From the NCBI RefSeq assembly GCF_045037415.1, contig NZ_CP173438.1: a DNA stretch of 64,000 nt. One strand, given 5' to 3'. The notes below the pieces were generated by a model. That model was not told the DNA's origin and did no database searches. It worked only from the letters and a program-made list of their open reading frames with translations. Both the position numbers and the translations under genes were made by a program. This document shows positions 30,721-62,206 of the stretch, piece by piece (within the stretch, counting starts at the first letter, position 1; each line of letters starts with the position of its first letter). The stretch is from Escherichia coli. GTDB lineage: Bacteria; Pseudomonadota; Gammaproteobacteria; Enterobacterales; Enterobacteriaceae.

Positions 30721-30755
<35 letters not shown>

Positions 30756-42741: not shown

Positions 42742-42792
42742 TTATCCTTTGTGTCCGGCAAAAACATCCCTTCAGCCGGAGCATAGAGATTA

Positions 42793-49911: not shown

Positions 49912-51138
49912 ATGTCACCCTGTGAAAATGACACCCCTATAAACTGGAAACGAAACCTGATCGTCGCCTGGCTAGGCTGTTTTCTTACCGGTGCCGCCTT
50001 CAGCCTGGTAATGCCCTTCTTACCCCTCTACGTTGAGCAGCTTGGCGTTACCGGCCACTCCGCCCTGAATATGTGGTCCGGTATTGTCTTCAGCATTACA
50101 TTTTTATTTTCGGCCATCGCCTCACCGTTTTGGGGTGGACTCGCCGATCGTAAAGGCCGAAAACTCATGCTATTACGCTCTGCTCTCGGCATGGGCATCG
50201 TGATGGTGTTGATGGGACTGGCACAAAATATCTGGCAGTTTTTGATCCTGCGGGCGCTTCTTGGTTTACTTGGCGGATTTGTCCCCAACGCTAATGCTCT
50301 TATCGCCACACAAGTACCGCGTAATAAAAGCGGCTGGGCGCTGGGTACGCTCTCCACAGGCGGCGTTAGCGGCGCGTTGCTCGGCCCAATGGCTGGCGGT
50401 TTGCTCGCCGATAGCTACGGCTTACGTCCGGTATTCTTTATTACCGCCAGTGTGCTCATACTCTGCTTTTTCGTCACCCTGTTTTGCATCAGAGAAAAAT
50501 TCCAGCCGGTCAGCAAAAAAGAGATGCTGCACATGCGGGAAGTGGTGACATCACTTAAAAACCCGAAACTGGTACTCAGCCTGTTTGTCACCACGTTAAT
50601 CATCCAGGTGGCGACGGGCTCAATTGCCCCCATTCTGACGCTGTATGTCCGCGAACTGGCGGGTAACGTCAGTAACGTCGCCTTTATCAGTGGCATGATC
50701 GCCTCGGTGCCAGGCGTGGCGGCTCTGCTAAGTGCACCACGACTCGGCAAACTTGGCGATCGAATCGGACCCGAAAAGATCCTGATTACGGCGCTGATCT
50801 TTTCTGTACTGCTGTTGATCCCAATGTCTTACGTTCAGACGCCATTGCAACTTGGGATTTTACGTTTTTTGCTCGGTGCCGCCGATGGTGCACTACTCCC
50901 CGCCGTACAGACACTATTAGTTTATAACTCGAGCAACCAGATCGCCGGGCGTATCTTCAGCTATAACCAATCGTTTCGTGATATTGGCAACGTTACCGGA
51001 CCATTGATGGGAGCAGCGATTTCAGCGAACTACGGTTTTAGGGCGGTATTTCTCGTCACCGCTGGCGTAGTGTTATTCAACGCAGTCTATTCATGGAACA
51101 GTCTACGTCGTCGTCGAATCCCCCAGATATCGAACTGA
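49912..51138 (+). CDS. mdtG: MFS multidrug efflux transporter
   Basis: 408 aa [44 protein letters not shown]... Confidence 0.93.
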
Positions 51139-51220
51139 TTTTTCGCCTTTCATACTTGCAAAAGCGGAGAATCAGCTATCCTTTTCCCTGAAACCTCATC
51201 AACTCAAAGGGAGAATCGTG

Positions 51221-51595
51221 ATGACCATGTACGCAACGCTTGAAGAAGCCATTGACGCTGCACGCGAAGAATTTCTTGCAGACAACCCCGGCATCGACGC
51301 CGAAAACGCGAATGTGCAACAGTTCAATGCCCAAAAATACGTTTTGCAGGACGGCGACATCATGTGGCAAGTTGAGTTTTTTGCCGACGAAGGGGAAGAA
51401 GGTGAATGTTTACCCATGCTTAGCGGTGAAGCTGCGCAAAGTGTCTTTGACGGCGACTATGATGAGATAGAGATCCGCCAGGAGTGGCAAGATGAGAATA
51501 CATTACATGAATGGGACGAGGGGGAATTTCAGCTTGAGCCACCGCTGGATACCGAGGAAGGACGCACAGCAGCTGATGAGTGGGATGAACGTTAA
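51221..51595 (+). CDS. msyB: acidic protein MsyB
   Basis: ORF (M)MTMYATLEEAIDAAREEFLADNPGID..., extremely acidic; start taken at ATG 51221 (124 aa). Confidence 0.9.
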   Translation: MTMYATLEEAIDAAREEFLADNPGIDAENANVQQFNAQKYVLQDGDIMWQVEFFADEGEEGECLPMLSGEAAQSVFDGDYDEIEIRQEWQDENTLHEWDEGEFQLEPPLDTEEGRTAADEWDER

Positions 51596-51823
51596 TCACT
51601 CATACGGGCCATGATGAATGTCGATCGGCAGCAGTAAGGTATCGAAAACCAGGGAGAATGGCAGATCAAGGATCGTGACGTAACGCCAGGCGGAGTCACG
51701 CACGTCCCATTGCACACCGGGATAATATTGGTTGCCATGCCCCTGCCCCGGTATAGTGCGACTAATGATGCTGCCACAGCCACTCAGCAAGGTCACCATT
51801 ATGCTCACCACAATTAAACGCAT
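51596..51823 (-). CDS. yceK: lipoprotein YceK
   Basis: ORF with MRLIVVSIMVTLLSGC... (lipobox LSGC), 75 aa; longer upstream extension in ORF track not supported. Confidence 0.85.
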   Translation of the reverse strand: MRLIVVSIMVTLLSGCGSIISRTIPGQGHGNQYYPGVQWDVRDSAWRYVTILDLPFSLVFDTLLLPIDIHHGPYE

Positions 51824-51840
51824 TTGATACCTCTTCCGTA

Positions 51841-51870
51841 AAAAATACCGGCATAACGCCGGTATTTTTA
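51841..51870. terminator. bidirectional rho-independent terminator (ends opgGH transcript)
   Basis: aaaaataccggc-ataac-gccggtattttta: stem flanked by A-run and T-run. Confidence 0.8.
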
Positions 51871-51884
51871 TTGGCTCGTTGTTT

Positions 51885-51990
51885 TTGCCGGATGCGGCGT
51901 GAACGCCTTGCCAGACCCACAAAATCTTGCAAAATCAATAAATTGCAGGAACGATGTAGGCCTGATAAGCGTAGCGCATCAGGCAACTAC
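51885..51990. repeat. REP / BIME cluster downstream of opgH
   Basis: gccggatgcggcgtgaacgcc... and gtaggcctgataagcgtagcgcatcaggc, typical REP palindromes. Confidence 0.8.
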
Positions 51991-51994
51991 GTTT

Positions 51995-56177
<4,183 letters not shown>

Positions 56178-61454: not shown

Positions 61455-62206
61455 GTTGTCACCCTGGACCTGGTCGTACATTTAAGAAATTAAATCATTT
61501 CAACTTGGTTGTTAACGCAACCCGTATTTTGTTAACGCTGCGTTACGATGGAAAGTATGTCTGCGGAAATATTTTTAATAACTCACCCGCGCGTTGTATT
61601 TTTCTTTTTTTGTTCATACCAAAGTATTAAAACCCACGTAAATACGCTGTTATCTACGCAAAAAATATTTTGTTTTCTTTTAAATCTCCGTTTTCCGCTA
61701 TCAAAAATCACCAGACAGTCATTCTTCTTGCCCGTCGCTGATTGCTGCGATATGTCTTGCGCACAAGCCGTGACAAACCTCGTCTTTTTGCAGTAAAAAA
61801 TTGTCCACGGTGGTATGGAGAAAAAACAAGAACGTTTTACATGACGAAAGGACTACAGCGAAATATTTTTTATATGCATTATTAGTAAGTTAGCACCATT
61901 TGTATGATTTTTTAAAATTGTGCAATAAAAACCAAATGTACAACTTTTCTATCATTTCTAAACTTAATAAAACCTTAAGATTAACATTTTAATATAACGA
62001 GTTACATTTAGTTACATGTTTAACACTTGATTTAAGATTTGTAATGGCTAGATTGAAATCAGATGTAATCCATTAGTTTTATATTTTACCCATTTAGGGC
62101 TGATTTATTACTACACACAGCAGTGCAACATCTGTCAGTACTTCTGGTGCTTCTATTTTAGAGGCAGCTGTCAGGTGTGCGAACAATAAAAAAGCGGGGT
62201 TTCATC
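61455..62206. promoter_or_regulatory. csgBAC / csgDEFG divergent intergenic regulatory region
   Basis: 752 bp strongly AT-rich non-coding gap between divergent csgB and csgD; in E. coli it is known to hold the csgB and csgD promoters, many regulator binding sites and the long csgD 5' UTR. Confidence 0.85.

Follow-up and report, generated by a model that had tools for sequence, protein, structure and literature searches.

What ends transcription of the opgGH operon of Escherichia coli, and what kind of sequence fills the gap between opgH (also named mdoH) and the gene that follows it, yceK, are questions raised by a short intergenic region in the 64,000-nucleotide stretch of DNA analysed here (hereafter the window). 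On the minus strand opgH (ORF 54568-51995, with its TAA stop at 51997-51995; taken from the list of open reading frames and a RefSeq match) is followed after 171 nt by yceK (51596-51837 including its SD, GGAAGAGG, at 51837-51830; ATG at 51823-51821, ORF 51823-51596), and the convergent plus-strand gene msyB (51218-51595) adjoins the yceK stop. The original prediction placed a bidirectional terminator and a cluster of BIMEs between opgH and yceK, and the gene identities that it gave agree with the RefSeq annotation of the matched genomes, in which mdoH/opgH, yceK and msyB are named beneath the matching region. Over the 501 bases around the locus, identity is 100% with several complete genomes and 97.2% with K-12; of 5426 genomes, 5388 contain at least 80% of the queried stretch.

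We favour an account, to which we give a probability of roughly 0.85, in which the opgGH 3′ untranslated region carries an ancient two-way terminator together with one inserted BIME-1. On the minus strand, the hairpin would end opgGH transcripts in a U-tract just before the yceK ribosome-binding site; on the plus strand, it would also end mdtG-msyB transcripts running antisense through yceK; and the BIME-1 (z1 + L with an IHF site + y), whose y side is decaying, would have entered the space separating the opgH stop from the terminator in the Escherichia lineage. Both of the predicted elements are thus present, but the order given for them, hairpin and then REPs, needs correction: along the direction of transcription the order is opgH, BIME, hairpin and yceK, all on the minus strand. 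In full, that strand reads from the opgH TAA through 10 nt, the z1 REP, L, the y REP, 17 nt, the hairpin and ACGGAAGAGGTATCAA to the yceK ATG, with the U-tract of the hairpin ending 16 nt upstream of this ATG.

The hairpin (51840-51872) was described beforehand as symmetric and flanked by A- and T-runs, and this description is accurate: a repeat finder reports two arms of 12 nt each (51841-51852 and 51858-51869) that are 100% complementary and enclose a 5-nt loop (51853-51857), with an A-run at 51840-51845 and a T-run at 51865-51869 followed by ATT. The core, UACCGGC/GCCGGUA, is G+C-rich, with five of its seven pairs being G-C, and folding of the RNA gives -17.9 kcal/mol for the plus strand (z = -4.7) and -18.9 kcal/mol for the minus strand (z = -4.4); none of 200 shuffled sequences folded as stably. 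Because the A-run and the T-run flank the G+C core, each strand reads as a hairpin followed by a U-tract – UUUUUU on the minus strand (51845-51840) and UUUUUAUU on the plus strand (51865-51872). A consensus terminator scan did not call the hairpin and reported an odd neighbouring stem (51858-51875) instead, since the A-T pairs count as stem, which places the T-run inside the stem, and the scan's rule wants a T-run after it; the call made here rests on the repeat finder and on folding rather than on that scan.

Comparison among species shows how strongly this structure is maintained. A YceK-based scan with one genome per species returned 80 loci, from genera including Escherichia, Citrobacter, Enterobacter, Leclercia, Lelliottia, Kosakonia, Phytobacter, Kluyvera, Buttiauxella, Atlantibacter and Salmonella, and about 75 of 78 Enterobacteriaceae species, spanning more than 15 genera, keep the hairpin just upstream of the yceK ribosome-binding site. 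Its stem, written as ATACCGGC/GCCGGTAT or as AAAATACCGGC/GCCGGTATTTT, is almost invariant among the scanned loci. The loops comprise 50 different sequences of 3-6 nt, and paired changes of the stem occur in Atlantibacter (AAGCCGGCC/GGCCGGCTT) and Buttiauxella (ATGCCGGCC/GGTCGGCAT and TGCCGACC/GGTCGGCA). RNAalifold applied to 60 distinct sequences gives nine pairs; four of them show compensatory double changes, and the seven core pairs are intact in every sequence; the covariation term is small (-0.28), most pairs being invariant. Essentially every species also retains the A-run that supplies the U-tract of the plus strand.

So well conserved a palindrome could also act as double-stranded DNA, as an operator at which a dimeric protein regulates yceK or opgGH, with ATACCGGC and GCCGGTAT as its half-sites; in favour of such a site, these sequences are unusually well conserved across genera. 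However, half-sites separated by anything from 3 to 6 nt and by 50 different loops fit poorly to a fixed dimer footprint, the compensatory changes keep the pairing and not the sequence, and RNA 3′ ends map to the tails of the hairpin. A spacing that varies while pairing is kept points to a folded single strand rather than to a site bound by protein as duplex DNA; we regard an operator as extremely improbable and rejected it on the variable spacing between its half-sites. The hairpin is an intrinsic (Rho-independent) terminator.

Published maps of RNA 3′ ends, all of them from K-12, bear directly on the prediction that the hairpin marks the 3′ boundary of opgGH; between K-12 and the window strain, the U-tract differs by a single T and the y REP by three bases. 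The K-12 hairpin has its arms at 1113532-1113543 and 1113549-1113560 and its opgH-strand U-tract at 1113556-1113562. In a TRS re-analysis of RNA 3′ ends from K-12 (PMC10687069, Suppl. Data 2-4), opgH has a ‘Primary’ terminus at 1113557-1113568 (+), with peaks at 1113560, 1113562 and 1113565; it is printed with the same hairpin and implies a 3′ untranslated region of 160 nt; the TRS statistic there is 0.92-0.99, which we read as a strong stop. The same tables contain a minus-strand terminus at 1113527-1113535, labelled yceK.opgH.IGR, in one data set and with p = 1 in one replicate. Given the arm positions, each tail of the hairpin holds one of these termini, which correspond to about 51837-51842 (minus) and 51866-51874 (plus) in the window. 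Adams et al. 2021 (PMC7815308), in their curated Term-seq table, give no 3′ end at the hairpin on either strand, probably as a result of expression thresholds, and TERMITe returned no match for experimental 3′ ends at the hairpin. The predicted boundary is supported by the ‘Primary’ opgH terminus in the K-12 U-tract, and mapping of 3′ ends, proposed beforehand as a check, finds ends at the hairpin in the TRS tables and none in the Adams et al. list. The opgH terminus is already in published tables, and in this sense the terminator is already known.

The second direction of termination concerns msyB. In 77 of 78 loci msyB is convergent with yceK, the two genes lying 0-8 nt apart (0 nt in 52 loci), and the pair is listed among convergent overlapping pairs, as an excludon, by ExcludonFinder (PMC12288877). 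Because the two stops (51595 and 51596 in the window) abut or nearly so, the transcript of each gene must end inside or beyond the other. The hairpin lies about 246 nt downstream of msyB, the intervening plus-strand transcript is antisense to all of yceK, and the consensus scan found no other terminator-like site on the plus strand between msyB and the hairpin. Given so narrow a gap and no such site, msyB transcripts must cross all of yceK in the antisense direction and meet the hairpin first. The symmetry of the hairpin, flanked by an A-run and a T-run, suggests that it would also end plus-strand transcripts, and msyB is their likely source, although we infer the assignment of the K-12 opposite-strand ends to msyB.

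Alternatively, the hairpin might terminate opgGH only, the plus-strand tail being a by-product of symmetry and msyB transcripts ending elsewhere, for example through Rho within antisense yceK. The opposite-strand terminus does occur in one TRS data set only and is labelled as intergenic rather than as msyB, the Adams et al. table has no entry there, and the plus-strand T-run is shorter and interrupted (TTTTTATT). Termination on one strand would not need the A-run, however, which essentially all species conserve, and the narrow msyB-yceK gap without another plus-strand terminator-like site leaves the hairpin as the first such site that msyB transcripts reach; we consider one-way termination unlikely, if far from fanciful. 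The prediction of a bidirectional terminator is probably right, in view of the symmetry, the opposite-strand K-12 terminus (in one data set, with one replicate at p = 1) and the convergence of msyB with no intervening terminator. The hairpin resembles the bidirectional intrinsic terminators of E. coli in its G+C-rich stem, its short loop, a U-tract for each strand supplied by symmetric A- and T-runs, its location where opposing transcription units meet, and the RNA 3′ ends mapped to its tails. It differs from them in that all of yceK separates msyB from the hairpin, so that the two units that converge are not neighbours, and in that on the minus strand it stands directly against the ribosome-binding site of the next gene.

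No promoter-like site for yceK was found on the yceK strand in 51000-52400, and in species with 56-nt spacers the hairpin is all that lies between opgH and the yceK ribosome-binding site. Since such spacers leave no room for a promoter after the hairpin, yceK mRNA probably passes through it, and probably arises either from terminator read-through or from a promoter upstream of the hairpin. Adams et al. 2021 (PMC7815308) report a Rho-dependent termination region at K-12 1114048 (+), antisense within msyB. This position, at about 51354 (minus) in the window, lies some 240 nt past the yceK stop and probably marks the end of yceK-sense transcripts; since it is downstream of yceK, some transcription must cross the gene. 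The view that the hairpin separates opgGH from yceK is thus right for most transcripts, but not in full, with a U-tract 16 nt before the ATG and a yceK mRNA that probably passes through the hairpin.

A further reading would make the hairpin a leaky attenuator within an opgGH-yceK co-transcript, with a promoterless yceK fed by read-through and a fixed, low ratio of yceK to opgGH. The closeness of the U-tract to the yceK ATG, the 56-60-nt spacers of some genera that the hairpin nearly fills between the opgH stop and the yceK SD, the lack of a yceK-strand promoter-like site in 51000-52400, and the Rho-dependent region past yceK, which implies that some transcription crosses it, are all consistent with such an attenuator. 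It is possible but doubtful, however, given a TRS statistic at the opgH terminus that reads as a strong stop, and a promoter could instead lie inside the 3′ coding region of opgH or in the BIME. More elaborately, the hairpin could be a conserved dual switch that passes a small, possibly regulated fraction of opgGH transcription into the promoterless yceK and also ends antisense msyB transcripts. We think this improbable; if it were true, expression of the lipoprotein YceK and of the acidic MsyB would be mutually exclusive and tied to osmoregulated glucan synthesis.

The second component of the spacer is a repeat. Upstream of the hairpin in the direction of opgH transcription are two REPs in opposed orientation: a z1-type REP (51956-51984, plus strand) that is intact, and a decayed y-type REP (51887-51920, minus strand), separated by a long linker, L (51921-51955), of 35 nt between the REP feet. 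The z1 REP is an exact match to the short z-type REP consensus (0 expected by chance), has its GTAG foot at 51956-51959 (+), folds at -13.2 kcal/mol on the minus strand (z = -2.7), and begins 10 nt past the opgH stop on the opgH mRNA strand. The linker contains AATCAATAAATTG at 51933-51945 (+), which fits the IHF pattern WATCAANNNNTTR, a pattern that is not rare by itself (7 found, 2.7 expected). BIME-1 elements are described (PMC3333891) as single-copy elements in which a z1 and a y REP stand in inverse orientation around a long conserved linker, L, often containing a site for IHF, and the BIMEs of the K-12 REPtron as y + z2 (PMC3333891). In the flanks of rayT, in the K-12 REPtron, y REPs are paired with a long z form, GCCTGATGCGACGCTGGCGCGTCTTATCATGCCTAC; this long form is z2, and the short form in the window is therefore z1.

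The y REP is recognisable but altered. Its minus-strand reading, GTGG-GTCTGGCAAGGCGTTCACGCCGCATCCGGC, matches the y consensus at 29 of 34 positions, and with five mismatches it was missed by a search for that consensus allowing up to three; it folds no better than shuffles (z = -0.6 and -1.25). In contrast to the z1 REP it lacks the GTAG foot, having GTGG in both the window strain and K-12, and three further stem changes are specific to the lineage of the window strain, in which the outer stem is mutated; the K-12 copy is closer to consensus. By published requirements (PMC3333891) the GTGG foot and the stem changes should make the y REP no longer a substrate of the REP transposase. The loss of the foot is decay of one half of the element and leaves its assignment to the BIME-1 family unchanged. 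A near-consensus y REP, with one mismatch, is present elsewhere in the window at 30721-30754.

From its sequence, we identify the REP pair as one BIME-1 (RIP/RIB: y + L + z1) that is half decayed. It resembles the elements described as BIME-1, RIP or RIB (Gilson, Bachellier, Boccard & Prentki, Oppenheim; PMC3333891) in having y and z1 opposed foot to foot across an L of about 35 nt with WATCAANNNNTTR, and in being single-copy, extragenic, and located at the 3′ end of a transcription unit, and is unlike them in the GTGG foot and three further stem substitutions of its y REP. Within the 171-nt spacer the unit is single and not in tandem, so that what had been called a BIME cluster is one BIME-1 unit; the expectation of REP palindromes after the hairpin was correct, and the REP consensus alignment suggested as a check gives an exact z1 and a y at 29/34. 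The element is a common one, the BIME part of the query having a median of 16 recurrences per E. coli genome. The K-12 RefSeq annotation carries CDS features only at the opgH-yceK locus, and in the copy of the K-12 annotation that we used there is no repeat feature at yaaX-yaaA either, despite a REP pair there; the absence of a repeat annotation at opgH-yceK is for this reason uninformative. The yaaX-yaaA pair is presumably one that is annotated as a RIP element. It combines an L linker with z2 instead of z1, and by the published scheme would be a chimeric (‘atypical’) BIME.

The linker also matches an Rfam model of a small RNA, RF02751 (ES036, or CssrF), at 51921-51963 with 47.9 bits against a gathering score of 37.6, and it could on this ground be an independent sRNA gene expressed from the plus strand. 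A sigma-70-like match at 51908-51935 (+), inside the y REP and linker and pointing into antisense opgH, would provide a weak promoter; it is the sole such match in 51000-52400, where shuffled sequences have 1.6 on average against the one observed, so that the promoter count is not above chance. Against such a gene, the ES036 model also matches the linker of the unrelated yaaX-yaaA REP pair in K-12 (L003:566-670) as well as orthologous copies of the BIME-1, and because of these matches we take it to recognise a linker family and not a gene. A literature search on ES036/CssrF found nothing relevant, and Shinhara et al. use different names. The window copy agrees with the ES036 (CssrF) family in its full-length match above the gathering score. 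Since the model also scores at the other K-12 REP pair, what it represents seems to be the linker of BIME-1 together with the z REP foot. An independent sRNA gene is very improbable, and we rejected it as the main reading on the ground that the model detects a repeat family. Other Rfam matches at gathering level in the window are SraB (18647-18815, -), the rne 5′ UTR (20676-21012, +), the PyrC leader (42743-42792, +) and ES056 (62061-62152, +), all of which are expected for this part of an E. coli chromosome.

The two components of the spacer differ in age. In most genera the spacer is 56-90 nt long and has no BIME, and in Escherichia it is 147-172 nt. An intact z1-L-y is present in three other Escherichia species (L007, L010 and L011), and only these reach the ES036 threshold; one locus (L006) has lost z1, another (L009) has lost most of L, and the copy in E. 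albertii (L013) is heavily mutated. Other genera have at the same position nothing, or unrelated REP pairs or single REPs of their own. By this distribution, the BIME-1 is an insertion of the Escherichia lineage, and the hairpin, being shared across genera while the BIME-1 is confined to that lineage, is ancestral; the terminator thus predates the repeat by far. REPs have landed recurrently just upstream of the terminator, independently in several genera.

Two further observations concern REPs around the opgH stop. In one Enterobacteriaceae species (MGYG-HGUT-00110), 5.8 tandem copies of a 129-nt unit of y-like and z-like REPs (L054:648-1388) stand between the opgH stop and the conserved hairpin, in a spacer of 886 nt that contains a spurious repetitive ORF of 190 aa. 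In Escherichia, the OpgH C-terminus has extra codons (the last six codons are at 51998-52015, minus), where other genera end in LALRKK or LALKAK followed by the stop. These codons contain an 11-mer of the y-REP arm, CCGGATGCGGC, found elsewhere in the 64-kb window only in the true y REPs at 30722 and 51888, and the end of the opgH coding sequence may have taken up a third y REP in truncated form. A sub-threshold naRNA4 match at 51959-52026 spans the same 11-mer.

The BIME-1 may have effects of its own, for which its family offers analogies. IHF would likely bind the linker L of the opgH-yceK copy, a putative property taken from the family, and the REP stem-loops would likely protect the 3′ end of opgGH mRNA. 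The z1 REP would also be likely, by comparison with other stop-proximal REPs, to lower opgH translation, since its stem begins 10 nt after the opgH stop; REPs less than 16 nt from a stop codon are reported to reduce how well the preceding gene is translated (Liang, Rudd and Deutscher, cited in PMC12306157). The z1 stem falls inside this limit, and distance is what the opgH case shares with these translation-lowering REPs and with the REPs that stabilise mRNA. It is just as possible that the BIME-1 is a neutral passenger, which its decay in several lineages would suggest.

The stretch between opgH and yceK is ordinary, consisting of a probable two-way terminator and one common repeat, both of kinds already described, and beyond annotation its significance is small: it fixes the 3′ end of opgGH, names the repeat as one BIME-1, half decayed, and dates the terminator before the repeat. 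The presence of yceK directly behind an efficient terminator, with no visible promoter, poses an expression question that is easily tested. The site between the opgH stop and the terminator, which REPs have colonised independently in several genera, offers a clean natural example of REPs landing upstream of terminators.
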